From Promethearchaeota archaeon (GTDB lineage Archaea > Asgardarchaeota > Odinarchaeia > Odinarchaeales > JBHLKK01), in assembly GCA_048939465.1 (NCBI GenBank), contig JBHLPL010000006.1:1256-33255 (forward strand): a stretch of DNA of 32,000 nucleotides. Reading direction: 5' to 3'. The notes under the pieces were generated by a model that saw only the letters and a list, made by a program, of their open reading frames with translations, ran no database searches and had not been told where the DNA came from. This document shows, in pieces, positions 5,515 through 29,991 of the stretch (positions are counted from its first letter, which is position 1; each line of letters opens with the position of its first letter). A program made the position numbers and the translations under genes.

Positions 5515-5781
5515 GCCTCACCAAAATCCAACATGAACAAGCAAGGTTTCTTCTCTCTGAAAAATAAATGTTGACTCGATTTAGGTAGTTCTAACGGATT
5601 AATCCTCTTCCTTCCCTGTTTTTGGCGCCCCTGACACTACGTGGATAATACCAGAAGATACCAGTAAGAGCAAAAAGCAACAAAAGGAAATTACTTCTTG
5701 TCTTCTGACCTCTGATCGGACTCTCTTGGGAAAGCAAAGATTTAAATATAACACCGTTATAATATCTCTCGGGAGTTGTAC

Positions 5782-6966
5782 ATGAAGAGAACGGTATATA
5801 TGGACAATGAGAGATCAACTCAAGTGGCAAAAGAAGTCTTAGACTCTATGGTTCCCTACTTCACAGAGTATTATGGTCATCCGGCTTCAATTCATGGACT
5901 GGGAGAGCGAGCGCATGATGCAATTGATGAAAGTGCAGAGACAATAGCTCGATCAATAAATGCAGGATCCAATGAGATCGTTTTTACCTCAGGAGGGACA
6001 GAGGCAAGTGATTTGGCAATAAGAGGCATCATCTACGCCAACAAAGACAAGGGTAGACACATGATTACGTCTAGAATTGAGCATCCATCAGTGATGAGAA
6101 TAACAGAAGAGCTTTCAAAACAAGGGTTTGAGGTCGACTATGTCAACGTAGATGAGAAGGGTTTCGTAGACCTAGAGGAATTGCAGCAGCTGATTAGAGA
6201 TGAGACTGTTTTGGTAAGCATAGCGCATGCAAACCACGAGATTGGATCGATTGAGCCAATAAAGGAAGTAGGAGAGATATTAAGAAACCAGAATCATAAG
6301 ATATATTTTCATGTTGATGGCCAGTCATCCTATACAAGACTCCCCATAGATGTTGCAGAATTCGATCTGGATGCATTAACGCTAAGCGCACATAAAATAC
6401 ATGGTCCCAAAGGTGTGGGTGCGCTCTATCTGAAAGAGAAGACAAAGATTGATCCGATACTCTTTGGATATGTCTCGCTATCAACATTAAGACCCGGAAC
6501 AGAGAATGTCCCAGGAATAGTCGGCTTTGCAAAGGCTGCTGAGATAGCTTTAAAGAATATCGATGAATATGTGGCTCATATGAGGAGTCTAAGAGATGAA
6601 TTGCTTGAAAGGATCGGAGAAACTATCCCTGAGACTTTGCTTCACGGTCCGAAAGGAGACAGGCGAAGTCCGAGCAATGTTAATTTCTCTTTTAAGTACA
6701 TAGAGGGAGAATCAATAATGATGTATTTGAATATGAATGGGGTGTATGTATCAACAGGCTCTGCTTGTGCGTCACGAAAACTGGAGCCGAGTCATGTCCT
6801 GACAGCAATAGGAGTGCCAATAGAGATTGCACATGGATCAATACTGTTTGCTCTAAGCAGGTATAACACGAAGGGTGATGTTGAATATGTACTCGAAGTT
6901 CTCCCGAAAGTTGTTGGCCATCTGAGAAGTATGAGTCCCTTATGGGACAAAAAGCACGAGAGGTAG
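5782..6966 (+). CDS. iscS: Cysteine desulfurase, IscS/NifS (group I)
   Basis: FTSGGTEA, PLP-lysine motif SAHKIHGPKG, RPGTENVPG, catalytic STGSACAS. ATG 5782 preferred (GGGAG SD); TTG 5776 is an alternative. Confidence 0.93.
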   Translation: MKRTVYMDNERSTQVAKEVLDSMVPYFTEYYGHPASIHGLGERAHDAIDESAETIARSINAGSNEIVFTSGGTEASDLAIRGIIYANKDKGRHMITSRIEHPSVMRITEELSKQGFEVDYVNVDEKGFVDLEELQQLIRDETVLVSIAHANHEIGSIEPIKEVGEILRNQNHKIYFHVDGQSSYTRLPIDVAEFDLDALTLSAHKIHGPKGVGALYLKEKTKIDPILFGYVSLSTLRPGTENVPGIVGFAKAAEIALKNIDEYVAHMRSLRDELLERIGETIPETLLHGPKGDRRSPSNVNFSFKYIEGESIMMYLNMNGVYVSTGSACASRKLEPSHVLTAIGVPIEIAHGSILFALSRYNTKGDVEYVLEVLPKVVGHLRSMSPLWDKKHER

Positions 6967-6971
6967 GAAAA

Positions 6972-7367
6972 ATGGGAATTAAGTACAATAAGAAAGTGAT
7001 GGAGCACTTCATGCACCCAAGGAACGTTGGAACACTCAAAGATGCAGATACCGTCATAGAAGAAGGTAATCCGGTCTGTGGCGATATGCTTAGGATGTAT
7101 CTGAAGATTAAGGATGGCAAGATTGAGGACATAAAATTCCTTTCTTTTGGTTGTGCGGCGAACATTGCAACAGCATCCGTTATCACGGAACTAGCGAAAG
7201 GAAAGACTTTGGAGGAAGCGAAGAAGATAGGTATGAAAGATGTAGCAGAGAATCTTGATAATCTTCCGCGTATAAAGATGCACTGCGCAGCCCTGGCTGC
7301 CAAGGCCCTGCAAAAGGCAATAGAGGAATTCAAAGAACACGAAAAGGACAGAAAGGTCGAGGAATAG
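6972..7367 (+). CDS. iscU: Fe-S cluster scaffold IscU/NifU-N
   Basis: YNKKVMEHFMHPRNVG, NPVCGD, FGCAANIA, KMHCA (three Cys). ATG 6972 lies 5 nt after the iscS stop. Confidence 0.93.
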   Translation: MGIKYNKKVMEHFMHPRNVGTLKDADTVIEEGNPVCGDMLRMYLKIKDGKIEDIKFLSFGCAANIATASVITELAKGKTLEEAKKIGMKDVAENLDNLPRIKMHCAALAAKALQKAIEEFKEHEKDRKVEE

Positions 7368-7661
7368 TCAGTCAGAACCACCATGAATAAATGGAAGAAT
7401 AACAACAATATCGTTATCTGATATTTTTGTATCGAGTCCTTCCAATGCTGAAATCTCACGGTCATTGACTAGGATCAGAAGACCACTTCTTATATGGTCT
7501 CCGTCATCAAAGAGTTCAGACCTTAATTCTTTCTTAACATTCTTTGCTAGGATTCTTAGAAAGCCTTCAAGTCGAATTTGACCTGGTACTCTGATACTTA
7601 TTTCTGGCGTTTCACTCAGTCTCCTCAAGTGAGCATAGAAACGAACCCTGACTCGTGACAA
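7368..7661 (-). CDS. Ubiquitin-like sulfur carrier/modifier (Urm1/SAMP/MoaD family) with GG-SD C-terminus
   Basis: Beta-grasp pattern VRVRFYAHLRRL ... ILVNDREISALEGLDTKISDNDIVVILPFIHGG followed by SD-stop. TTG 7661 chosen because of GAGGATGG upstream; the ORF track extends to 7682. Confidence 0.85.
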   Translation of the reverse strand: MSRVRVRFYAHLRRLSETPEISIRVPGQIRLEGFLRILAKNVKKELRSELFDDGDHIRSGLLILVNDREISALEGLDTKISDNDIVVILPFIHGGSD

Positions 7662-7750
7662 TATCCATCCTCTCAGTGTCAAAGCAGATTTAGAGAATAG
7701 ATAAAGTTTTTGTGTATGCTCGTCTATAAAAAGTATTCCGAGGCTATTCG

Positions 7751-8887
7751 GTGGACGAGATGGAAATCACTTCATTCAAGATAAGGTATCCAAAGTTGGA
7801 GGATGACTGTACTCTTGTCAAAGGTGTCGTCAGGAGTCTAGAAGAGATGAGAGAAGATGAAATAACTTTTGTCGAACCATGTGCTGCAGAGGTAGGAAGG
7901 CTCATGGCCAAAATAACCCTTTCTGATGAGAAAGCTCAGAAACAGGGACTCTTTTTCGACAAGAGTATGTTGTGCGAGCTCTTTGAAGCATTTAAGGAGA
8001 GATTCTCCGAATTTGAATGCAGTAAGCTATTAGGCATAGTCAGGATAAAATGGAGAGGAAAGAACATATCACTCTTTGCTAGTGGCAGAATAAAAATCTC
8101 AACAGCCTTGAGTGAGGAGGACATCATGCGAATGCTTCACGATATCACTCGCTTGTCGTGGGGGGCAATGATCTGCAGCGTTTGCGGCAGTCCGGCGATA
8201 TATTGTGCTTCCGGAGCCTGCAATAAGTGTATTATTCACCAAGGAGATGAAACAAAAGAGGCCTTTGTCAGCGGCAAGCTACCAGGTCTGATTCTGACAA
8301 ATGCCCTAAACCAAATGGACCAAGCTATAAAAGAGCTGGAAGTCAATTATGAGAGACTCTTAAATAGGTTGATTAAGCAAGAGAAGAGTGACATATCACT
8401 TAGAGCTGCCTTGAAAAAGACATTGAAGACAGCCCAACTGAGCTTAGAATATATTCTTAGAGTAAGCAGCCCCGAAGATGCCCTAGCAGGATTCATGGTG
8501 TTGGGTTCTTCATGGAACCTCAGAACGGTGCTTGAAGCCGTGAAATGTATCTATGAGGAGATGGAAGCAGTCTGTGTCTTCTTTCAGGAAGTTGATAGAA
8601 CTCTTAGAGATTCTCTGTATAGTCTGTTAACGGGAGTGAATACAGTTCTTTCAATACTCTCTACCGGCTTCATGATCTTTGATAGAGAAGCCAGAGATTC
8701 TCTCGAAAGAAGAATCGGACTTCTCAAGAAAAGATTTCAAGACTTCAATAGAGGCAGTTTAGAGACACCAAAAAGACAAAAGGTTTTAGATACCTTGATC
8801 CATCTTATTGACTCGTTCTTAGCATTTGCACATCACCTATCCAAGATTCTCGGGGTGGAGTCTTTTGACAAAGGTGGAAGAGATTAG
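7751..8887 (+). CDS. Hypothetical protein, possible Fe-S/metal-binding (TBP-like N-domain, CxxC-x5-C-x3-CxxC cluster, helical C-terminus)
   Basis: 378-aa ORF; EPC...ISLFASGRIKI..ALSEED pattern recalls archaeal (Fe-S)-binding proteins; ICSVCGSPAIYCASGACNKC; overlaps the sufS start by 23 nt. Confidence 0.5.
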   Translation: MDEMEITSFKIRYPKLEDDCTLVKGVVRSLEEMREDEITFVEPCAAEVGRLMAKITLSDEKAQKQGLFFDKSMLCELFEAFKERFSEFECSKLLGIVRIKWRGKNISLFASGRIKISTALSEEDIMRMLHDITRLSWGAMICSVCGSPAIYCASGACNKCIIHQGDETKEAFVSGKLPGLILTNALNQMDQAIKELEVNYERLLNRLIKQEKSDISLRAALKKTLKTAQLSLEYILRVSSPEDALAGFMVLGSSWNLRTVLEAVKCIYEEMEAVCVFFQEVDRTLRDSLYSLLTGVNTVLSILSTGFMIFDREARDSLERRIGLLKKRFQDFNRGSLETPKRQKVLDTLIHLIDSFLAFAHHLSKILGVESFDKGGRD

Positions 8888-10088
8888 AGCAGACTTTCCC
8901 ATTTTGAGAAAGCGAAGGAAAAGAGATGATAAACCGTGCATATATCTTGATAATACTGCGACAAGCCTGAAGCCCAGGCAGGTGATAGAAGCAATTGTGG
9001 ATTACTACGAAAATCACTGTGCGAATATCCATCGTGGGGTCTACAGACTCTCTCAAGAAGCCTCCAGACTTTACGAAGAAGCTCATGATACGGTTGCCAA
9101 ATTCATAGGTGCAAGGAATAGGACTGAGATGAGTTTTGTTAAGAATACAACAGAGGCAATAAACTACGTAGCGTATGGAATTGATTGGAAGCCTGACGAC
9201 ACGGTCATAGCCTCGGTCATGGAACATCACAGCAACATTGTTCCCTGGCATCTAATAAGAGAGAAATTCGGGATAAAGATAAAATACGTGCCTTTGAGAG
9301 ACAACTGGTACCTTGATATTGACCAGTTGGAGGCATTAATTGATGACAAAACCAGACTTGTCACAGTAACTCAAGTATCCAACGTCGTTGGCACCATCAA
9401 TCCAATTGAAAGGATATGCAAAATTGCTCACGATCATGACGCTCTATGTCTTATTGATGCTGCCCAAGCAGTCCCTCATATGCCGGTAGATGTCAAAAGG
9501 ATCGGGTGCGATTTCTTGGCGTTCTCAGCCCATAAGATGCTTGGCCCCACCGGAATTGGGGGATTATACATTAAGGAAGGAATAGCGGAGCAGTTGTGTC
9601 CAACCTTAGGCGGAGGAGACATGATACGGAACGTCACACTGGAAAGCTGTGAATGGAACGTAATGCCTTGGAAATTCGAGGCAGGAACACCAAACATAGC
9701 AGGAGGAATTGGGCTCAAAGCTGCAGTAGATTACTTAAACAGCCTGGGTATGGAGTGGGTAAGGAATCACGAAAAGGAACTGACAGGATATATGCTGGAG
9801 CAGCTCGAAGGAATCCCGAAAGTCGAAATCTATGGGCCGCGAAATGTAGAAGAGAGGGGGGGTGTATGTGCATTCAATGTTGAAGGGTTGGATGCTCATG
9901 ATGTCGCCACTTTCTTAGATGAAATAGAGAACATAGCTGTCAGATCAGGAGTTCATTGCGCACAACCTCTACATAATACGCTTGGCATTCCAAGAACTGT
10001 GAGAGCATCCGTATACGTATATAATACGAAAGAAGAGACCGAGAAACTGTGCGATACCTTGAAAACAATATCTGAAGAACTAGCATAG
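8865..10088 (+). CDS. sufS: Cysteine desulfurase, SufS (group II)
   Basis: IRADFPIL, LDNTATSLKP, NIHRG, DAAQAVPH, FSAHKMLGPTGIG, KFEAGTPNIAG, catalytic RSGVHCAQP. TTG 8865 with SD GGGGTGGAG. Confidence 0.93.
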   Translation: MTKVEEIRADFPILRKRRKRDDKPCIYLDNTATSLKPRQVIEAIVDYYENHCANIHRGVYRLSQEASRLYEEAHDTVAKFIGARNRTEMSFVKNTTEAINYVAYGIDWKPDDTVIASVMEHHSNIVPWHLIREKFGIKIKYVPLRDNWYLDIDQLEALIDDKTRLVTVTQVSNVVGTINPIERICKIAHDHDALCLIDAAQAVPHMPVDVKRIGCDFLAFSAHKMLGPTGIGGLYIKEGIAEQLCPTLGGGDMIRNVTLESCEWNVMPWKFEAGTPNIAGGIGLKAAVDYLNSLGMEWVRNHEKELTGYMLEQLEGIPKVEIYGPRNVEERGGVCAFNVEGLDAHDVATFLDEIENIAVRSGVHCAQPLHNTLGIPRTVRASVYVYNTKEETEKLCDTLKTISEELA

Positions 10089-10341
10089 TTTAGAGCATTG
10101 CATTTCCTTTTGAAATACTGGTTTCTAAAAAGAAGCGCTACTATGTGCCTGCGGATCCTAAATAAGCTCGAACATTCAGTTAGATAATTTTCGGGGGGCA
10201 GTTCTAGAAAAACTGAGTAATTATCAATCAGAAATGCTCCTTCTTCAGTTTTACAGACTAGCTGTGAGTTAATCTTTATAATGAATCTTGTGCTCTAGTC
10301 TCAGTTGAATCAGAAACCAACTGAAATAAGGCCGGATCTGC

Positions 10342-11073
10342 ATGTTATCAAAGGATGAATTAGCGAGATATGATAGACAAATTAGATTGCACAAGTTTGG
10401 TGTGGAGGGACAGACGAAACTTAAGAGGACAAAGGCTTTTGTTGCCGGCATCGGCGGTCTTGGATCTCCTGTGCTGTCATACCTGACATTAGCCGGGATT
10501 GGTAGCATATACTTGGCGGATGGCGATGTCGTGGAATTGAGTAACTTGAATAGGCAAATCCTACACTGGACAAGGGACATAGGTAATAAGAAAGCTAGGT
10601 CGGCAAGAGACAAGCTTCTAGAAATGAATCCGAATGTCGAAACTAGAAGTCTCGCAGAAGTTATAACGGAGGATAACGTATCAGCGCTGGTCGGAGACAG
10701 TGATTTGATAGTTGATTGCATGGATAATTTCGAGACGAGATATTTGCTGAATCGAGTCGCATTGGAGAGGGAAATACCTCTTTTTCATGGAGCCGTCTAC
10801 GGCTTCGAGGGACAAGCTACAACAATTATTCCCGGAAAAACACCATGCCTGAGATGTATCTTTCCTGAAGCCCCGCCTAAAGAGGTTTTTCCAGTAGTCG
10901 GGGTCACGCCTGGTGTTATCGGTTGTATCCAGGCAATGGAAACAATAAAATATGTTGTAGGAATTGGAAACTTGATAATGAATAGGCTCTTAGTATTCGA
11001 TGGAATAGATATGGAATTTATGAATATTGAGGTTAAGAGAAATCCGAATTGCTCAGAGTGCGGAGATAGATAA
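10342..11073 (+). CDS. ThiF/MoeB/UbaA family E1-like adenylyltransferase
   Basis: RYDRQI, GIGGLG, DGDVVELSNLNRQ, DCMDNFETR, Zn pairs CLRC and CSEC. Confidence 0.92.
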   Translation: MLSKDELARYDRQIRLHKFGVEGQTKLKRTKAFVAGIGGLGSPVLSYLTLAGIGSIYLADGDVVELSNLNRQILHWTRDIGNKKARSARDKLLEMNPNVETRSLAEVITEDNVSALVGDSDLIVDCMDNFETRYLLNRVALEREIPLFHGAVYGFEGQATTIIPGKTPCLRCIFPEAPPKEVFPVVGVTPGVIGCIQAMETIKYVVGIGNLIMNRLLVFDGIDMEFMNIEVKRNPNCSECGDR

Positions 11074-11100: not shown

Positions 11101-12585
11101 TCATATTAGAACCAATGTTTTCGAGAATAACTTCTTGAGTTCAGATGATGGTTCGCTGCTTCTTCTAAGTATATTCAGAGTGATTTTAAGAATTGCAAAG
11201 GCAGCCAAGTCCGTGATTCTGTCTCCGCTTTCCGCGGCGTCCTTGGCTGTGCTTCTTATGATTTCAAAGAACTGCGTGTTCAGATCTCTTTTCTTCTCTT
11301 CAATCTCCGTGTTGAGTGTCCCCAAAATTGCACCTATGTTCAAGCTCATTGAGTTCAGATTCTGCGGCAAATCCGTCGATACGATTTCACATCCCTCAAG
11401 ACTTAGCACACGAATACCTGTTCGCCTTATTAGTATTCTTTTGATTGAAGGGTTATCCCTGATCTTAGTCAGTGTTCTTATGAGATGTTCAATCCCCTTG
11501 ACTAGCGTTTCTTGTCTTGTCTTTAAAAGATTCCTTGCAGATCTTATGAAAGGGAGAAATATCTCTGTATGCATGTATCGCTGATTCTTCGGGTCGCCTA
11601 TCCAGACTTCTTCCTCATCAATTGCATTTTTGGCAGCACTGTATGTACTGTCTTCCACATCCTGAATACCGGAGAAAATACTGCCTAACACATCCTTATA
11701 ACTCTCACTCGTAAGAGTGTTTCTGAAAGCTTTGCTTCCCTCTAGTCCTCTTGCCAGAGCAGTATCGAACTCACATATTCTTTTGAGATTCTCAAATAGC
11801 TTCGCCATAGATGAGAGCCCTTCAGAGACTCCTTGTATGATGATGTTTGAAGGAAGGCGCAGCGTTGGATCTACTTCTTCTTTTCCGTATCTTAGGAAAT
11901 CGTTATAAAGATGCATCACTTTCTCGTTTTCCTTTCTAGTACTTTGCATGACAGCCAGTGTCTTATCCATTTCCGCCTGTAATCCTTTTATGGCTTCCTT
12001 GTTCCTCTCAATGTTCTCCTTGAGGTCGAGTTTGTCTTGAGTCAATATTCTGATCTTGTGATTCAGTGCGTTGATTTGATTCGTCTGATCGACTGTTTTG
12101 TATGATAACTCAGCGTTTTCTTCCTTCAGCGCTTTTGTGTCTTCTTCAAGGAGGGTAATACGATTCTGTTTCTCGCTCAACTGATTCCGCATAGCGGAAA
12201 TTTCATCTTGCGTCTTGACCAGCTGAGTCACCGTTTCGTCAAGGGGGTGAAAAATCACATTAACACGATTCTTTAATTCATCGATTTTACCTTGGATCGT
12301 AACCTGTTTTTCTTGGATGCTCTCTCCTTTAATATCCTTCTCAATAGTCCGTATTACGGAAGAGACAGTATCACCTTCTCCCTTTGGCAATTGACCGGTT
12401 AGCAAAAGCTGATTTAGCTGTCTCTTTAGCATATCAATACTATCATTAACCTTGGCAATGCTTTCTTTTTGCCCCAGCATATCCAAATCGATTCTTTTTG
12501 TCTCTTTGACGATTTCGGATAGTTGAACAATTAGTTTCTTCAGATTGTCGTACGCATTTCTAAGTGATTGGGGCATTTCTTGCAT
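11101..12585 (-). CDS. Long coiled-coil protein, third gene of the tubulin operon
   Basis: 494 aa; continuous heptad region of ~100 aa (QDEISAMRNQLSEKQNRITLLEEDTKALKEENAEL...GLQAEMDKTL); SD GGTGA; starts 29 nt after the tubulin stop. Confidence 0.8.
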   Translation of the reverse strand: MQEMPQSLRNAYDNLKKLIVQLSEIVKETKRIDLDMLGQKESIAKVNDSIDMLKRQLNQLLLTGQLPKGEGDTVSSVIRTIEKDIKGESIQEKQVTIQGKIDELKNRVNVIFHPLDETVTQLVKTQDEISAMRNQLSEKQNRITLLEEDTKALKEENAELSYKTVDQTNQINALNHKIRILTQDKLDLKENIERNKEAIKGLQAEMDKTLAVMQSTRKENEKVMHLYNDFLRYGKEEVDPTLRLPSNIIIQGVSEGLSSMAKLFENLKRICEFDTALARGLEGSKAFRNTLTSESYKDVLGSIFSGIQDVEDSTYSAAKNAIDEEEVWIGDPKNQRYMHTEIFLPFIRSARNLLKTRQETLVKGIEHLIRTLTKIRDNPSIKRILIRRTGIRVLSLEGCEIVSTDLPQNLNSMSLNIGAILGTLNTEIEEKKRDLNTQFFEIIRSTAKDAAESGDRITDLAAFAILKITLNILRRSSEPSSELKKLFSKTLVLI

Positions 12586-12614: not shown

Positions 12615-13889
12615 TTACCCACTTTTTAGATTGTCGTAGGTCTCAATTATGTGTTGAAAAGTATCCCTTGCCTCTCTCAACTGATCTCTTGACACTCCTT
12701 CTTCCTCGTAGTGGCTTATATACCAGTTTCTCTCAAAAAGCGAATCGAAGTTCTCCAGAACATGTTTGAATGCATCGGTTATTGCTACGTTGTTTGCAAG
12801 TAGCGTAATCTCTTTTTCGAAACCGGTGGGACTGCTCTCGCAGATGCCATATTTTAGGCCTAAGTCTGGATGAACTCCAGGAACATAGTCCACAGTAGCT
12901 CTTATCTCATTCATAATATTGTAGATATTGTCTATTGATATTTCGCCCCGAAACATTATAACGGAAGATATTGCTGAGCCTTTATCATTACAGCTAACCA
13001 TGAAATGGCTTGGGTCAAAACAACGTTCTATAAGATCTAATTCTGTAGCATCTTTCCCTTCTTCCTTGGTCAGGGGAGCCACCGCAGGAATGATGAACTT
13101 TGTCTCGGGAAGCGCAACCAAATTATGAGCCATCTCCATAAGATCCATATTCAGCTGTCCTGGGAATCTGAGAGACGCAGTTATGGATGCCATGACTCTG
13201 CCTATCAGAAAGTTAAGGTCAGAGAATTGCTTTATGAAGGGTTGATTAAATATATCCTTCACTATTCGCATCAAAGCACTGTTATCGAACATGACGCATA
13301 TGTCTGCATGTTTCATTAGATGGGTTATACTCAAAACCGTGTTGTAAGGAGCTATTGTGATGTCGTTCATACGAGCGGGCAAGACACTGAACGTCATAAC
13401 ACCTTTTTCCGGAAACTCCTTCTTCAGCGTTTCAGCAATTAAGGAACCAAACCCACTTCCAGTACCTCCGCCAAGCGTATGGATTATTATAAAACCCTGT
13501 AATGTGTCTGGGACTGTGGTTTTGATTTTCTCTAGGAGGTTTGGGATTAATCGCTTCCCAAGCTTATATCCCGTGGCCCAGACGTTATGAGCCCCCGAAT
13601 AACTGAGTAACATAAGCTCTTCTGAAAAGAATTTATCAAGACCTTTTTCGCGTACCAGAAACTCAACGGCCAGTGGCTCGAGGTCAATGAACAAAGATCT
13701 TGGATGGAACCCATCCGGTGATTCGACGAGGAAGACAGATTTGTAGTCAACAATATCGGAATCCTCTTCCTTCTTCTGCAGAGTCTTCATGTCAATTCCA
13801 TGTTCCGAGCATATAGTATTCCAGAAATTATAACCTATTTGATTTCCGCCCTGCCCAACATGTAGGACAAGTATCTCTCTACCAGGCAT
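12615..13889 (-). CDS. Eukaryote-like tubulin, OdinTubulin-type
   Basis: MPGREILVLHVGQGGNQIG, FIDLEP, GAHNVWATGY, signature HTLGGGTGSG (GGGTGSG at 13452-13472), APYNTVLS, FDNSAL, SITASLRFPGQLNMDLMEM, WYISHYEEEG. The alternative ATG at 13895 adds ML. Confidence 0.95.
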   Translation of the reverse strand: MPGREILVLHVGQGGNQIGYNFWNTICSEHGIDMKTLQKKEEDSDIVDYKSVFLVESPDGFHPRSLFIDLEPLAVEFLVREKGLDKFFSEELMLLSYSGAHNVWATGYKLGKRLIPNLLEKIKTTVPDTLQGFIIIHTLGGGTGSGFGSLIAETLKKEFPEKGVMTFSVLPARMNDITIAPYNTVLSITHLMKHADICVMFDNSALMRIVKDIFNQPFIKQFSDLNFLIGRVMASITASLRFPGQLNMDLMEMAHNLVALPETKFIIPAVAPLTKEEGKDATELDLIERCFDPSHFMVSCNDKGSAISSVIMFRGEISIDNIYNIMNEIRATVDYVPGVHPDLGLKYGICESSPTGFEKEITLLANNVAITDAFKHVLENFDSLFERNWYISHYEEEGVSRDQLREARDTFQHIIETYDNLKSG

Positions 13890-13906
13890 CAGCATCGCCT
13901 CTCATT

Positions 13907-15547
13907 CTATTCCAAACTAGATTTCTTTCTTGTTGAGTAAATTCTGTGTAGTTTTTTTGTAATGGTCTTACATGACGCATCATTTGATACGTATTTTGCA
14001 AAATACTCGTAAATATCATCGTAAGTGACATTGCCCATAAGCTTTTCTTTCAGCATCTCCACGCTCACAACAACGGAAAGTTCATCTGTATCAATGACGG
14101 TAACCGACGGATTGTAGGCGACGTAGATTCTCAGAACAGGATCTGAAACCGCGTTGACTTCTCCTCTTTTTATCCATCCACGCTCACCAAAACCTTTCAG
14201 CGCATTATTCACAAGGTCAATATCCTCTTCGTAAAGTGTTATTGGAAGAACGCCATGCGTTATGAAGTCCTCGCCGGTATATTTCTGTGGAATGCAGTCC
14301 ACAAACATCGATATGCCTCTTATAGTTTCCTTGTTTATCCTTGAAGATCTCATTCGTATGCAGCTCTTGAGGGGTTCGTATGCCTCGATTAGGAAGCTTC
14401 CGAGCAACATGAGTTTTCGTTTAAGCTCATCCCAATCATAAGCGTTTCCATCTCCCTGAATCCATCTGTCCAGTATTATGTCAAAGTAGCTCATCAGCAA
14501 TGGAGAAGGGTTCTTTAGGTTTGAGAGCAGATCTTTGATATTCTTTATGCTCGTAGAGATCGGATCTGCGATCTCTTCTAACTTCTTAGCAAAATCTTTC
14601 TCTCTTTCAGCATATTCAGAATGATCTGTCTTAAAGCTGGATATGAGCAGGTTCATTAGCTTGACTGCTCCGTCGATATCATGATTCTTAAGAATCACCC
14701 TGGGACTGATTCCTGCAGAAACGAGCATTTGCACACCTCTAACCAGTGCGATTTCTGCGTCTTTCATGTTTTCAAGGATTGGGACAGCTTTCTGCAAATA
14801 CTCGTCATCAACTTCTTCCATTTGAACCTCAATCATGAACTTCTCAAGGAAGCTTTTCAGATTTCTGTTGAAGAATTTCTGCTCACTGTCAGTTATTCCT
14901 CGGACTTTCTCCGACATTTTCCTTAATTTGCTCATAACCTCAGAGCGAATCCTGATTCTTCTTTCCAAATCCCTTCTGAATTCCTTATGTTCAGAGAATT
15001 TCTTCTCAGCATTCCCTATGATTTCCAGAATCAGATCGTATTTCTCATCAACTGACTCTATGTTGCTCTTGCCTTCGGCGACCGCTGTCTTGAGCGGTCC
15101 AAGAGATGCGTTTATGCGAGATATCGCTTTTATGGCTTCGTCCATTCCTCCCCACGATAGGTCCATGCTCTTCATCATAGCTTCCAGACTATCAAATGCG
15201 ATCAAAATCTCCTCACAGCCTTTTTCCAGATCCTTCGCTCTGCTTAATACTGAATCTAGCAGCAAACCATCTCCTCGGTTTAATGTATTTTCCAGCGTTT
15301 TCAAATATGCCTCCAATTTCTTCAGCTTCTTTTTTGCGCCACCAAAAATGCCTCTTATTCCTTTCCGGACTTCTTTTACCTGCTTGGCTTCTGTTTTTAG
15401 CCCTTCTGCCCGTGACCGGAGTTCATTCAAATCTTGGGTTATTTGTCCGGGCACAAGACCTAAGGAGTCGGCCACCTTTTCCCTAAGCCATAGCCTTCGC
15501 ATAAACTGGTCAATTCTTTCATTCAAAGCTTTCTGAGCTTTTTGCAA
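13907..15547 (-). CDS. Helical/coiled-coil protein, first gene of the tubulin operon
   Basis: 546 aa; K/E/L-rich helical repeats over the first ~300 aa, small alpha/beta C-terminal domain; stop 11 nt before the first tubulin ATG; TTG start with GGGGTAGAAGG upstream. Confidence 0.78.
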   Translation of the reverse strand: MQKAQKALNERIDQFMRRLWLREKVADSLGLVPGQITQDLNELRSRAEGLKTEAKQVKEVRKGIRGIFGGAKKKLKKLEAYLKTLENTLNRGDGLLLDSVLSRAKDLEKGCEEILIAFDSLEAMMKSMDLSWGGMDEAIKAISRINASLGPLKTAVAEGKSNIESVDEKYDLILEIIGNAEKKFSEHKEFRRDLERRIRIRSEVMSKLRKMSEKVRGITDSEQKFFNRNLKSFLEKFMIEVQMEEVDDEYLQKAVPILENMKDAEIALVRGVQMLVSAGISPRVILKNHDIDGAVKLMNLLISSFKTDHSEYAEREKDFAKKLEEIADPISTSIKNIKDLLSNLKNPSPLLMSYFDIILDRWIQGDGNAYDWDELKRKLMLLGSFLIEAYEPLKSCIRMRSSRINKETIRGISMFVDCIPQKYTGEDFITHGVLPITLYEEDIDLVNNALKGFGERGWIKRGEVNAVSDPVLRIYVAYNPSVTVIDTDELSVVVSVEMLKEKLMGNVTYDDIYEYFAKYVSNDASCKTITKKLHRIYSTRKKSSLE

Positions 15548-15647: not shown

Positions 15648-16481
15648 TCACAAGTCAGAATTCTCGAGAAGTTTCAGACCCTTCACGTGTATTTTAATAA
15701 CTGCAAAAGGAGATTTTATTGCGGATATGATATTAAATCCACAAGAGTGACTTAGCAATCTTTCTGCCGTTTTCAGTCCCTTTTTTGAGTAGGCCCTAAT
15801 AATCTTCTGAAATGGAGGACTTCGTCTATTAACGTAGTAGTAGGTGTTTAGTAAGCTCCATTTGGCAGCTTCCCGTATGAATCTTCCCGCTTTTCTATCA
15901 AGGAGAAATGCCAGAAAACCGGAGAGGCTAAGAAGAACGCACATTAACAGACTTTTAAGCCACTGCTTGATATCAATATCGTGCCTTCTAATACTACTTG
16001 AAATGTCATCTCCGAATACCGTTACAACATGACTCAAAACAGAGTTAAACACCAGTTTTGACGGGGCAAGAATCTTCCCGAAAGTCCGACTTATTGAAAA
16101 AACTCTTTTGAAATCTCCTCTTAAAATGTCACCCTTTCTACAAATAAAATGTGAGGCGAACATGCCTGTGGCTCTCTCAATAGCTCTAAACAGGCGTTCT
16201 ATTCTTGTCTTTGCAGGTCTGGAGAATCCCAGAGTTGTCTCAAGACCTTCAGCTATTCTATCAACTTTGTCAATTCTCCTCTGGCTAACAGGATCATCCA
16301 AGACTATTATCAAATCAAGGTCACTCTTTTCCGGGTCTGCGTATCCTTTCGCGTAAGACCCGAACAGCAGAATTGAGATTATTCTGTCAGCTGCTGCCTT
16401 TTTGACCATCCTGATCAGAGTATCCAAATAAGTTCTGGCCTTTTCAGGCAGTAAGATTGATCCCGGTTGTGCTTTTTTCAT
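15648..16481 (-). CDS. Pol-beta-superfamily nucleotidyltransferase domain protein with helical C-terminal domain
   Basis: SILLFGSYAKG...SDLDLIIV (hG[GS]-x-DhDh motif) in the N-terminal half. Confidence 0.8.
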   Translation of the reverse strand: MKKAQPGSILLPEKARTYLDTLIRMVKKAAADRIISILLFGSYAKGYADPEKSDLDLIIVLDDPVSQRRIDKVDRIAEGLETTLGFSRPAKTRIERLFRAIERATGMFASHFICRKGDILRGDFKRVFSISRTFGKILAPSKLVFNSVLSHVVTVFGDDISSSIRRHDIDIKQWLKSLLMCVLLSLSGFLAFLLDRKAGRFIREAAKWSLLNTYYYVNRRSPPFQKIIRAYSKKGLKTAERLLSHSCGFNIISAIKSPFAVIKIHVKGLKLLENSDL

Positions 16482-16953: not shown

Positions 16954-17565
16954 CTACACTGTTGCTCTTCTTGCCCGAGGAATCCTTTCAAGCTTTCTCT
17001 TCAGTCTTTCGAAATTAGTCCTCAGCTTTTCCAGAAGGGCATCAGCATTATCAAACTCCTCATCTATTATTGCTCTAAGGAACTTATTGACTTCAGAATT
17101 ATGCTTTCTTGAGTTATAACCAATTAATTCGAGAATAGCTTCAGTTCTATCCAGTGAGGATCTACAGCCTTCAGTCACTTTGTTAATCACTGAAAGATTC
17201 TTTTCCATTTCTGATGTAAGTTCTCTGTCTTGTTCCATAGCGCTTAGTGTGTATTCAAATCTCGGCAATACGAAGAGTCTTAATTTTGACTTCAGATCTT
17301 CCTTGCTTTCTAAGGTCTTGTATAAGACTTCCAATACTGATTTTGCATAGCAACAGACTTCTTTCCTCGCTTGTATCCACTTCTCAAGCGCTTTCAAGGC
17401 GACTAATGCTTCGGAGAAGGTTTTTATGAATTGATCAAGTCTGATTTCCATAATCGGACTTTCCGACTTTATAGGATCGGGGAAATTCAGAAAAATAAAG
17501 GATGTGCCATCCTTGATCATTCTGCGGAATTCCGATAATCTTTCCATGATGGACTCTTTGCTCAA
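16954..17565 (-). CDS. Hypothetical alpha-helical protein
   Basis: 203-aa ORF; amphipathic-helix composition; G-rich SD-like run upstream of TTG; no family recognised. Confidence 0.6.
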   Translation of the reverse strand: MSKESIMERLSEFRRMIKDGTSFIFLNFPDPIKSESPIMEIRLDQFIKTFSEALVALKALEKWIQARKEVCCYAKSVLEVLYKTLESKEDLKSKLRLFVLPRFEYTLSAMEQDRELTSEMEKNLSVINKVTEGCRSSLDRTEAILELIGYNSRKHNSEVNKFLRAIIDEEFDNADALLEKLRTNFERLKRKLERIPRARRATV

Positions 17566-17751: not shown

Positions 17752-19041
17752 TTACTCATCCATTAGCCTAGACCATAAAGCCACTAACTCTCTTGAGATA
17801 TTCCGATGATCTTCACTGTAGATCTTAAGAGCTTCTTCACCCTTTTTGCTCAAGAGCAAAAACCTCTGATGGTTCCCGTCCCCCTCAGGATCCGTAAAGG
17901 AGATAATGTACTTCAGTCTTTCGAGTTTCTCAAGAACCTTCAAAGTCGTATTAATGTCCGTCGTGGGGGCAACACGCTCAAGAGTTGAGCCAGGATAATC
18001 AAGCAATGATTGTAGGACTTCAACAGCAAGAGGTAGTTCGTCATCTGCGAAGTCCTCATCCAGTAGGATTCTTCTTATTCGCATTGTGCTGTCCGAATAT
18101 GGTTTCATGGGATCGATTCTATGGGTTGGTGCGTAATCACTAATCTCTCTTTCGGTTGTTTCCCGGAGGGCTAGGTCCGTTGAAAGATGAGAAGGGGACC
18201 GTCGCTTCTTGGAAGACACATTTGATGTTAATGATGAAGCTATCGGACCCTCTGTAATCAAATTCGCAACCTCGGATTCTCTCAGAGCGAGATCAAGACC
18301 AGTCTCAGAGTCTATTCCACCGCTCATAATTCCCGATCGCAGGACTTTGATTAGGTTGTCTCGATCAATTCTGCGAACTTCGCACTCTGGAAATGATGTA
18401 TGAATGGAAGTCTTCACTATAAACATATTTTTCCGGACTTCTTCGGCCAGTATTGCGCACTTCTCTTCGAGGTTTAAAAAGCCCTTCATATTCTTGTGGA
18501 CCGCAATTAGCACCTTCACATTCCAATAATTTTCATGCAGCTTGAGATAGTTGAGTCTGTCATGGTTGACTCGATCCTCTGATGGATTTTGAACCAAGAT
18601 ATACGTTAGTGATATGTTCTCGTCATGAAGAGTCTTCAGAACACCATCAAGATCTCCTCTGAAGCCCTTTGGGACCATTTTGAGAGCAAGGAATCCTAAG
18701 GCAGTTATTGTAGATTCCTTCTTTGTTATAACTACGTCATCATAGTTTCCGTAAAGATAAAACTGAATGCCTTTTAGGACATCTATTTCTTTCAGTCTAC
18801 CCTGAGTTTCTCTTCTTACATTTCTAAGTCTTCCCACATCATAGAGCTTCTTCTTTGCTCCTTTGGCAAGTCTTTTGAGTTGACTGTAATTCAGCGCAAC
18901 CATTGTAACTGCCATTGGTATAATGAAAAGGAATAGTGTGACAGCTGTGTTACTTGCAAGGAGTAGAATAGCGTTTAGTGCAATGAATCCAACCACCAGG
19001 AGAACGATGAATTTAATGATCCCTCCAGATAGAACCTTCAC
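17752..19041 (-). CDS. Membrane-anchored hypothetical protein (two N-terminal TM helices, C-terminal winged helix)
   Basis: Hydrophobic N-terminus IIKFIVLLVVGFIALNAILLL / TAVTLFLFIIPMAVTMVAL; C-terminal wHTH pattern TLKVLEKLERLKYII...LLLSKKGEEAL; GTGA stop/start overlap with the upstream gene. Confidence 0.65.
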   Translation of the reverse strand: MKVLSGGIIKFIVLLVVGFIALNAILLLASNTAVTLFLFIIPMAVTMVALNYSQLKRLAKGAKKKLYDVGRLRNVRRETQGRLKEIDVLKGIQFYLYGNYDDVVITKKESTITALGFLALKMVPKGFRGDLDGVLKTLHDENISLTYILVQNPSEDRVNHDRLNYLKLHENYWNVKVLIAVHKNMKGFLNLEEKCAILAEEVRKNMFIVKTSIHTSFPECEVRRIDRDNLIKVLRSGIMSGGIDSETGLDLALRESEVANLITEGPIASSLTSNVSSKKRRSPSHLSTDLALRETTEREISDYAPTHRIDPMKPYSDSTMRIRRILLDEDFADDELPLAVEVLQSLLDYPGSTLERVAPTTDINTTLKVLEKLERLKYIISFTDPEGDGNHQRFLLLSKKGEEALKIYSEDHRNISRELVALWSRLMDE

Positions 19042-19409
19042 GATTCAAACTCTCCCAACAGCTTTGTTCCAATATAGATTGTGAACATCCCTGGGACCCC
19101 AAAGCCAATAAACCATAGCACTGTTTCAAACATGCCAGATTGAGTAAATAATCCACCAATGACTCCTGCCATGGCTACCGTGAGAAATCCCACCCCGACG
19201 GACGTGATGAGGCTCCCTACAAGCCTATGAACAGGGCTAGTACCTCGCCTCTCCTCCTTAATCCTAGCTCTTTCCAGCCTATCAAGTAAGTCCAGACAGC
19301 TAAGCTTGGAAATAGCATAATCGCTGGAAGACATCTCTCCTTCCTCATACTTCGAATCAATGAATTTCAAAAGCCTAGCTACCTCTTCTTCCATCACCGA
19401 AATCCTCAT
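19038..19409 (-). CDS. Small membrane protein with N-terminal SHOCT-like motif and two TM helices
   Basis: IDSKYEEGEMSSSDY motif; hydrophobic LVGSLITSVGVGFLTVAMAGVIGGLF and TVLWFIGFGVPGMFTIYIG; translationally coupled to 17752..19041. Confidence 0.6.
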   Translation of the reverse strand: MRISVMEEEVARLLKFIDSKYEEGEMSSSDYAISKLSCLDLLDRLERARIKEERRGTSPVHRLVGSLITSVGVGFLTVAMAGVIGGLFTQSGMFETVLWFIGFGVPGMFTIYIGTKLLGEFES

Positions 19410-28556: not shown

Positions 28557-29813
28557 TTATGCCTTTCTCAGGCGAGCGATTTCTCTCTTTCCAAGATCCT
28601 CTAATATTTTCAGAACACCCGACGGAGTAATCTTGAAGCCCATACTTCTCAGTCCTTGAGTGATTTCCAGTACGCTATAACCTCGATCCATATTCTTCAG
28701 TATTACCAAGACTTTTCTGTCGTTGACTACGAGGCTTTGCATAGCCTTTTCAAAATCGAATTCAGGAGTAAATTCATAAATCTGATGATTGGCTGCGTTC
28801 TTACCCCATTCTTCTGAAATTGGCTCTGATCCCACCGATTTGACCCTGGCAACGCCCATAGTTCGATAATATTCCAAGGTTTCCAAGATCTCTTGCGGTT
28901 TCTTGTCGAAGCCCACCTTTTTGAGCCCATCGGACAATTCCAGCACAGTATAACCATGATCGAGATTAGCCATAAGTGTGCAAGTAGCCGGACTCCTACC
29001 GGCGCAGGCGGTCTCGACAACGCTATCAGGAGTATAAGGTGATACCAGCTCATAAACCCGCTGGTATTCGATTTCGTCTTCAAACAAATGTGAGACTAGT
29101 GTTGCTGCTCTTGCCTCAACCAGCCTGGAAATCTTGCTCGAGGCTCTTTTGAGAGGTATGCCTGCTGTCTTAGCAACTTCTCTGAGGGTTTTCTTGCCAT
29201 CAATTAATCGCATTAGAGAAAGCATATCCGAATCCAGTTCAAGTTTGTTTACCGCAGGTTCAGAAACTAGCAGTATTGCATCGGGAGACACGGCCCCAGC
29301 TGATTCTCCTGTGTCAGCAGCCGGCGCCTCTTCCTTTGACGGCGGTGATATCATAGCTTCTTCTGCTTCACGTGTCGGTTCTGGGGCAGGAGCAGGAGTT
29401 ACTGGGGAAGCAGAAATCGCTTCACGATGTTCAGCGGATGTAGGGGCAGGCATGGCGGCACCTGGTAATAGATCATCAATTTCTTCGAAGTCTTTCTTGA
29501 ACCTTCTCAATACCGTTCCTAATGACATTATGACTAGCCCTTCTCGTTCATAAGAGTCGATAGCTAATGCAACCTTATCAGAGACCCTTGAGATCAGGAG
29601 ACACCCTCTTTCGAGATGTTTCACTTGGTAATCACCGGTATCCCAAGTTGGAAAGCTCCTGGAAATAATACTCTTCGTTACGGTTTCAGCTTCTTCGCCC
29701 AAGGTTCCGTACAGACAATTCCCTTGGGCATCGAATAATCCTATTCGCACGTGAGCAAGGGTAACCAGTCCTTCTTTCATCCTTGTTATCAGATCTTCCA
29801 CCTGGTCCGACAT
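28557..29813 (-). CDS. Multidomain protein: roadblock/profilin-like N-domain, Pro/Ala linker, three winged-helix domains
   Basis: N-terminal IGLFDAQGNCLYG...LLISRVSDKVALAIDS; low-complexity linker PAPAPEP; wHTH IDGKKTLREVA; internal duplication NLDHGYTVLELSDGLKKVGF / NMDRGYSVLEITQGLRSMGF. The ORF extends to GTG 29831. Confidence 0.65.
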   Translation of the reverse strand: MSDQVEDLITRMKEGLVTLAHVRIGLFDAQGNCLYGTLGEEAETVTKSIISRSFPTWDTGDYQVKHLERGCLLISRVSDKVALAIDSYEREGLVIMSLGTVLRRFKKDFEEIDDLLPGAAMPAPTSAEHREAISASPVTPAPAPEPTREAEEAMISPPSKEEAPAADTGESAGAVSPDAILLVSEPAVNKLELDSDMLSLMRLIDGKKTLREVAKTAGIPLKRASSKISRLVEARAATLVSHLFEDEIEYQRVYELVSPYTPDSVVETACAGRSPATCTLMANLDHGYTVLELSDGLKKVGFDKKPQEILETLEYYRTMGVARVKSVGSEPISEEWGKNAANHQIYEFTPEFDFEKAMQSLVVNDRKVLVILKNMDRGYSVLEITQGLRSMGFKITPSGVLKILEDLGKREIARLRKA

Positions 29814-29991
29814 TTTGGTTCCTCTCATCACACATTCTTCGGATATATCTATTTATAAATTCGTTTTATCAGTTATAAGAGTTCTCATAATTCATTTTCT
29901 TCGAAAGAATATTAACTCATATCTAGGTAATTGTTTTAAGCATTCAAGGGAATAGGTGCTTGAGTGTGATAATTCGGATGTGGTACCGAAT

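Follow-up and report, generated by a model that had tools for sequence, protein, structure and literature searches.

An OdinTubulin ortholog and its conserved flanking genes A and B in Odinarchaeia

Gene organization of the tubulin locus

Three tightly spaced genes lie on the minus strand of the window (the whole stretch of 32,000 nucleotides that was analyzed): gene A (15547-13907), a tubulin gene and gene B (12585-11101). The gap between A and the tubulin ATG is 17 nt and the gap between the tubulin gene and B is 29 nt. The features on which the analysis is based are the following (window coordinates).

11101..12585, minus strand: gene B, 494 aa, described from its AlphaFold model and alignment
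12615..13889, minus strand: OdinTubulin ortholog, 424 aa; the open frame reaches an upstream ATG at 13895
13134..13136, minus strand: GAG codon of the catalytic E252, which corresponds to E254 of alpha-tubulin; N247 and D249 belong to the same T7/H8 motif
13907..15547, minus strand: gene A, 546 aa (LCB_4 ortholog WEU40311.1), described from its AlphaFold model and alignment
15648..16481, minus strand: Pol-beta-type nucleotidyltransferase, 277 aa, assigned by Pfam NTP_transf_2 (3.8e-9) and synteny

In the preliminary description a tubulin had been placed at 12615-13895 with no strand given. The reading frame is real and belongs to the minus strand, where 13895-12615 is open over 426 aa; the plus strand of the same interval is closed. 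Translation probably begins a little further in, at the ATG at 13889, since MPGRE is the N-terminus of the database protein and of all orthologs; this leaves a protein of 424 aa. Further mangrove/sediment metagenome assemblies contain near-identical DNA of the tubulin locus, for which no indels are listed, and there is no RNA dataset among the datasets listed with such DNA. An Rfam search of the locus gave no match, and a scan for sigma-70 promoters and terminators, a model ill-suited to archaea, remained at chance level.

The tubulin is an ortholog of OdinTubulin

Every motif quoted in the preliminary description is present in the protein, which ends in YDNLKSG. Pfam assigned both Tubulin (1.4e-47) and Tubulin_C (2.9e-16) above their cut-offs. 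A near end-to-end match with OdinTubulin had been stated there, and direct alignment with the protein of Ca. Odinarchaeum yellowstonii LCB_4 (WEU40310.1; PDB 7EVB) confirmed it: 299 of the 424 residues are identical without a gap (70.5% identity, colinear). When the tubulin was compared with solved structures by phmmer, OdinTubulin (PDB 7EVH) was found at E 3.8e-211 and the next match at 2e-76; BtubB, AtubB and beta-tubulins followed the OdinTubulin entries at about 1e-76 or weaker. Identity to eukaryotic beta-tubulins is about 35%.

In quick ML trees the tubulin falls inside an Odin clade of 11 sequences, with SH-aLRT support of 100 when FtsZ was left out and 82 when it was included, and this clade is set apart from AtubA/B, from beta-tubulins and from FtsZ. 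Membership of the FtsZ/CetZ clade, which had been named among the findings that would overturn the assignment, is contradicted by the TIGR00065 FtsZ model (28.7 bits against a cut-off of 295) and by the separation from FtsZ in the tree, in which CetZ was absent. The trees contained no alpha-tubulin, gamma-tubulin, CetZ or artubulin sequences and therefore say nothing on the deep origins of tubulin. Nor does one further ortholog settle those origins, about which the sequence had been expected to be informative. Orthology, conserved residues and clade placement agree, in turn, on a catalytically intact tubulin of the OdinTubulin type, as first proposed: it is a vertically inherited OdinTubulin ortholog and a further member of an already characterized family. 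A divergent tubulin from an Asgard genome with four tubulins (L102, G160:C1:866406-867518) also joined the Odin clade, at SH-aLRT 83 and with a long-branch warning, a placement that agrees with the published affinity between AtubC and Odin tubulins.

Host lineage and copy number

By GTDB kinship, the host belongs to the same order as Ca. Odinarchaeum and to a different family. The suggestion that the tubulin came from a lineage other than LCB_4 was therefore right, but it brings nothing new in kind. The host genome measures 1.96 Mb (91% complete, 3.8% contamination) and gives three PF00091 matches, namely this tubulin and two FtsZ proteins above cut-off on other contigs. It follows that the protein, described as the only tubulin of the window, is also the only one in the 91%-complete genome. 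A tubulin paralog bearing Lys was found neither in the window nor in that genome, and in place of the paired Glu/Lys paralogs that mark AtubA/B, BtubA/B and alpha/beta-tubulin, locus and genome hold a single gene. A single tubulin copy in every known genome of Odinarchaeia has already been published (PMC13394414). Among 400 Asgard genomes, tubulins were found in 6 of the 7 members of the host order and in 2 other genomes; the tubulin-bearing members of the order have one tubulin each, and the two genomes outside it carry multi-copy Atub sets. The seventh member (G002) lacks the gene because its contig ends inside gene A.

Median identity over 232 reciprocal best hits between the host and a 400-kb sample of LCB_4 is 48%. 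Only 2.6% of these pairs reach 70%, which places the tubulin (71%) in the top 3% and points to strong selection on it. The closest relatives (G001, L050-L055) carry tubulins 93-94% identical to this one and are labeled 'Ca. Hodarchaeota' or 'Promethearchaeota' at NCBI, names that are no guide to their taxonomy. The first of these labels is misleading, because G001 (JBHLKK010000006.1, labeled 'Hodarchaeota') belongs to the genus of the host and to the order of LCB_4; its presence on a 94%-identical relative gives no evidence for an Odin-type tubulin in the lineage nearest to eukaryotes. Despite the mangrove/sediment labels of the sequencing runs, the idea of a 'mesophilic OdinTubulin' received no support from composition: the IVYWREL fraction on shared orthologs is 0.433 in the host and 0.434 in LCB_4, and reverse gyrase was found in neither genome.

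GTP site and C-terminus

The Glu that had been reported at the position of alpha-tubulin E254 is indeed there. The minus-strand codon 13136-13134 reads GAG and encodes E252, which aligns with 'Glu251' of OdinTubulin and is invariant in 11 of 11 Odin tubulins aligned. A100, H101, F222, N226, N247, D249 and E252 are identical between this tubulin and the LCB_4 protein, for which the residues of GTP binding and hydrolysis have been described together with the mechanism by Akil et al. (10.1101/2021.10.22.465531); N247, D249 and E252 are numbered one lower in the paper on the LCB_4 structure. The acidic C-terminal tail is absent, as had been noted: the protein stops at residue 424, directly after the last helix, and is about 30 residues shorter than beta-tubulins. 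Since in all 11 Odin tubulins collected (424-431 aa) the chain stops at most a few residues past the last helix, a tail-less C-terminus is the normal state of the Odin tubulins sampled and not peculiar to this one.

The closest known system is OdinTubulin of LCB_4 itself (WEU40310.1/OLS18786.1; PDB 7EVB-7F1B; PMC8956254), which has the same GTP-binding and catalytic residues, occurs as a single copy beside two FtsZ proteins, lacks the acidic tail and is flanked by the same genes. The two differ in that LCB_4 comes from a hot spring, whereas the present host represents another family known from mangrove/sediment metagenomes; in 125 substitutions, two of which (Q245 for P, R173 for E) are nearer to beta-tubulin; and in a KaiC-like gene upstream of the LCB_4 locus, which is missing here. 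According to Akil et al., the LCB_4 tubulin polymerizes in vitro without partners and forms GTP-dependent curved protofilaments and coiled tubules about 100 nm wide. Because the present protein is orthologous to it and no Lys-bearing paralog accompanies it, we infer that it very probably behaves likewise, as a homopolymer with GTP hydrolysis at every interface and a protofilament that bends. Identical subunits would be arranged head to tail, GTP lying at each junction, and N247, D249 and E252 of the next subunit would position the second cation and the attacking water. Hydrolysis, which would then occur at every interface, would bend the protofilament, so that rings or coiled tubules would result and not microtubules of the alpha/beta type.

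Other tubulin systems are more distant. Eukaryotic alpha/beta-tubulin shares the fold, the signature motifs and catalysis of the E254 type, but the present protein would form no heterodimer, carries no acidic tail, and its M-loop/H9 region falls 3 residues short of that in beta-tubulin. AtubAB of Ca. Lokiarchaeum ossiferum and Heimdallarchaeia/Kariarchaeaceae (PDB 9F6T, 9TQK, 24RT; PMC13394414, PMC13371889) are likewise eukaryote-like tubulins of Asgard archaea, and their alpha-like subunit has the same catalytic Glu. They are, however, tandem Glu/Lys pairs that form mini-microtubules of 4-5 protofilaments, while one gene with no Lys partner is found here. In the btubA-btubB-btubC operon of Prosthecobacter a eukaryote-like tubulin of a prokaryote is also encoded with an accessory gene; that tubulin is heterodimeric, BtubC is kinesin-light-chain-like, and A and B matched BtubC in no search.

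The A-tubulin-B cassette is conserved in three lineages

The order A-tubulin-B, with gaps from -4 to 84 nt, was found in the host genome and its closest relatives (G000, G001, L050-L055), in L046, in L086-L088 and in four Odinarchaeum genomes including LCB_4. The cassette is thus unbroken in three deep lineages of Odinarchaeia, with no gene inserted between the three, and the tubulin-B adjacency is also kept on two short contigs (L047, L049). When 1.84 billion proteins were scanned with an HMM of A, just 6 homologs came up, and the one distant homolog led to the third lineage (L086-L088, Ca. Odinarchaeia), whose cassette gaps are 6 and -4 nt. In L086 (9082-14364) the order is nucleotidyltransferase-A-tubulin-B, the tubulin overlaps gene B by 4 nt, and the tubulin protein, 431 aa long, is extended at its C-terminus by a short stretch whose last residues are NREES. 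Aconitase and B12 radical SAM genes near this locus are shared with the Odinarchaeum locus in another order.

Among the three lineages, identity is 24-35% for A and B and 69-77% for the tubulin. Relative to their LCB_4 orthologs, A (27% identical) and B (32%) are in about the lowest 7% of orthologs, and conservation in both is concentrated in the C-terminal domains. Outside the A-tubulin-B block the genes are rearranged or family-specific. No full-length homolog of A or B was found outside the host order in the 400 Asgard genomes searched, where other matches were weak and confined to coiled coil. Profiles of the A and B C-terminal domains gave no match in two genomes bearing Atub, in searches without a positive control, and with these queries no homologs were found beside AtubAB or in AtubAB-bearing genomes. 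Orthologs of A and B had previously been noted in LCB_4 only, where they were judged genome-specific with no homologs found, and the upstream neighbor was proposed to work with OdinTubulin (PMC9871819); gene maps of Odin tubulin loci are available as a supplementary figure of PMC13394414. The present comparison corrects the single-genome view, A and B being conserved neighbors of tubulin across three lineages.

How much weight can be given to this adjacency depends on the background. Between the host family and the Odinarchaeum family, 57 of 80 tight co-directional ortholog pairs (71%) and 47 of 112 triplets are conserved. Because background synteny is this high, the adjacency shows an operon-like unit and not a physical partnership. 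Since all carriers belong to one clade, moreover, the co-occurrence of A, B and tubulin counts as a single evolutionary event.

The nucleotidyltransferase is kept upstream of the cassette in all three lineages (31-37% identity). It lies directly upstream of A in the host family and in L086, and a KaiC-like gene stands between the two in Odinarchaeum and L046. It possibly belongs to the cassette unit; it might modify one of the proteins encoded there, or it might be a bystander; a weak MntA-like match is far below cut-off. The KaiC-like gene itself is found directly upstream of A only in the sub-clade on the Odinarchaeum side (L029:6700-7458, L046:5501-6262, L090:2421-3182), and only distant paralogs of it (~25%) occur in the host genome.

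Predicted structures of A and B

The AlphaFold model of A (pLDDT 87) consists of stacked three-helix bundles over approximately aa 1-340, followed by a conserved alpha/beta C-terminal domain with a G-x-R-G-W-x-K motif and a predicted topology that is winged-helix-like (element order helix-strand-helix-helix-strand-strand). The alignment also shows a conserved basic loop, G-I-x-G-x-F-G-x-K-K-K, at aa 63-73. The model of B (pLDDT 75) has an N-terminal helical bundle, a continuous helix at aa 90-234 and a conserved C-terminal domain, in which L-P-S, R-Y-x-H-T-E and I-R-R-T-G-I-R motifs can be aligned. The long helix spans 145 residues with a heptad a/d hydrophobicity of 0.65 versus 0.21, as in a coiled coil, whose length would be about 20 nm if the model is correct. 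The C-terminus of B is basic and hydrophobic and ends at the same position in 13 of 13 orthologs. Neither protein has a predicted transmembrane helix. Membrane-targeting amphipathic motifs were considered at aa 63-73 of A and at the C-terminus of B; both segments show conservation and a basic character, but neither stands out by its hydrophobic moment.

The LCB_4 ortholog of A has been called PRC1-like at its N-terminus and Snf8-like at its C-terminus ('Prc1-Snf8', PMC9871819). For the first part, MAP65_ASE1 was absent from the families listed at E<=10, and the PDB profile and fold lists for A contained no PRC1 chain and only generic three-helix-bundle matches. For the second part, a search of A with PF04157 (EAP30/Snf8) gave no match, and hhalign of the A C-terminus against an Asgard ESCRT-II alignment covered 31 columns at E 0.009 with a probability of 4% (reversed control, E 0.16); the predicted secondary structure is compatible with an ESCRT-II winged helix. 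The LCB_4 ortholog of B has been called ATG16-like/Smc (PMC9871819). B is not an SMC protein: it has 494 aa, where SMC proteins have about 1,170 aa with ABC ATPase heads and a hinge, and it scores 31 bits against a cut-off of 729, through its coiled coil only; the ATG16 label reflects a generic coiled-coil match far below cut-off. A roadblock-like tail in B received no support, as there is no Pfam match and no beta-sheet in the model.

Fold searches (Foldseek PDB, VIA, ESM Atlas) returned EzrA, desmoplakin and HURP-type bundles for A and FliS-like four-helix bundles for B. These are generic helical matches, from searches that scarcely probed the C-terminal domains, and no new fold is claimed for either protein. 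Pfam and PDB profile searches with the two C-terminal domains found nothing credible, their matches to haemagglutinin HA2 and spike being helical coincidences. No family, sequence or fold search put a name on A or B. When tubulin was modeled in complex with C-terminal portions of the two proteins, the median score was 0.49, compared with 0.56 for the control in which A was replaced and 0.00 for the controls in which tubulin was replaced. The prediction gives no answer and counts neither for nor against binding.

A proposed cytoskeletal module and alternative explanations

Odin archaea have yet to be isolated, which leaves the role of OdinTubulin in the cell obscure (Akil et al.), and the existence of archaeal microtubule-associated proteins has been stated as an open question (10.64898/2026.02.15.705738). 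Taken alone, the tubulin contributes no more than one divergent ortholog to comparative biochemistry. More informative are the conserved flanking genes, which were missed in the first reading: the cassette names two soluble candidate partners that can be tested against the already purified LCB_4 tubulin, and it makes the question of archaeal tubulin-associated proteins directly testable.

From the genomic data we consider it reasonably probable that the tubulin is co-expressed with A and B, as dedicated soluble rod proteins, in one cytoskeletal module specific to Odinarchaeia. B would dimerize through its coiled coil and bind or cross-link filaments through its conserved C-terminal head, and A would act as a spectrin-like spacer that connects filaments with the membrane or some other structure. 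That at least one of the two binds tubulin directly is a putative step to which we give slightly less than an even chance. A little less probable again is the more complete proposal that A and B are dedicated tubulin-associated proteins, one to cross-link or nucleate filaments and the other as a tether to the membrane, co-inherited with OdinTubulin since the ancestor of Odinarchaeia. The idea of a module has a precedent in btubC, which stabilizes BtubAB filaments (PMC9871819), and the fuller proposal, if true, would describe a three-component archaeal tubulin cytoskeleton whose accessory proteins are unrelated to eukaryotic MAPs or are very distant PRC1/ESCRT-II relatives. As for the cellular job, the leading though speculative possibility is that it might lie in shaping or constricting the membrane alongside, and not instead of, the two FtsZ proteins; this agrees with the speculation of Akil et al. 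themselves on OdinTubulin. Several observations weigh against the module: the fast evolution of A and B contrasts with that of their presumed binding partner, the tubulin; neither protein has a transmembrane helix, and the hydrophobic moments of their candidate membrane-binding motifs are not outstanding; and the LCB_4 tubulin polymerizes alone in vitro (Akil et al.).

The same in vitro result is in line with the main alternative, in which OdinTubulin stands alone and A and B are co-transcribed neighbors kept by operon inertia, without any action on the filament. The 71% conservation of tight pairs between the two families is what such inertia would lead one to expect, and the nucleotidyltransferase also stays nearby although it looks functionally unrelated. 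On the other hand, the searches found full-length A and B in tubulin-bearing Odinarchaeia and nowhere else, and both have a predicted rod architecture like that of scaffold proteins; in the third lineage, too, their genes lie right next to that of the tubulin or overlap it; and the three genes are never interrupted, whereas a KaiC-like gene has been inserted upstream in one sub-clade. We therefore regard inertia alone as rather unlikely.

TubZ systems combine a tubulin with an adaptor that binds DNA and a regulator that has a coiled coil. By analogy, the C-terminus of A could bind DNA, B could be a coiled-coil regulator like TubY, and the tubulin could move chromosomes in a segregation system of the TubZRC type. 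The winged-helix-like topology predicted for the C-terminus of A and its conserved basic residues fit this proposal. But A matches no HTH family by sequence, and the sole hint of a winged helix, the weak 31-column match, is to Asgard ESCRT-II domains, for which no DNA binding is known; in addition, the locus is chromosomal and lies amid housekeeping genes, and the LCB_4 tubulin forms wide coiled tubules, not treadmilling spindles (Akil et al.). DNA segregation thus seems improbable.

Finally, that the tubulin is a eukaryotic contaminant, an FtsZ/CetZ protein or the alpha half of an AtubAB heterodimer, as its identity to beta-tubulins and the 'Hodarchaeota' and 'Promethearchaeota' labels of the nearest MAGs might suggest, can practically be dismissed, since the gene has no introns, its contig carries an archaeal PolB1 and is syntenic in several independent assemblies, the protein groups with Odin tubulins at full SH-aLRT support and scores far below the FtsZ cut-off, a second tubulin is absent from the 91%-complete genome, and the 'Hodarchaeota'-labeled contig (50,429 nt) is that of the congeneric G001.

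Other genes in the window

Two predicted membrane proteins, of 429 and 123 aa, are encoded by overlapping genes (17752-19409, minus strand) that are co-oriented with the cassette and syntenic in the genus. The larger (19041-17752) was considered as a membrane anchor of the cassette, but it was not found in three Odinarchaeum genomes and is therefore not a core part. Between these genes and the nucleotidyltransferase, a helical protein of 203 aa that belongs to no known family is encoded at 16954-17565 (minus strand); with 8 matches in G001 and 3 in G002 it represents a lineage-expanded paralog family.

Beside the cassette, at 5776-11073, lies a sulfur-handling cluster that encodes an IscS-like desulfurase, IscU, a SufS-like desulfurase, a ThiF/E1 enzyme and a Urm1/ThiS-like protein, the last of which ends in GG-SD and not in a free GG. 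Between the SufS and ThiF genes (10089-10341; L031:4547-7096) congeneric genomes hold a gene for an 849-aa secreted-looking protein that is absent here. At 28557-29831 (minus strand) a 424-aa protein is encoded, with an N-terminus that by eye looks like a roadblock/longin domain, a Pro/Ala linker and a weak winged-helix match.
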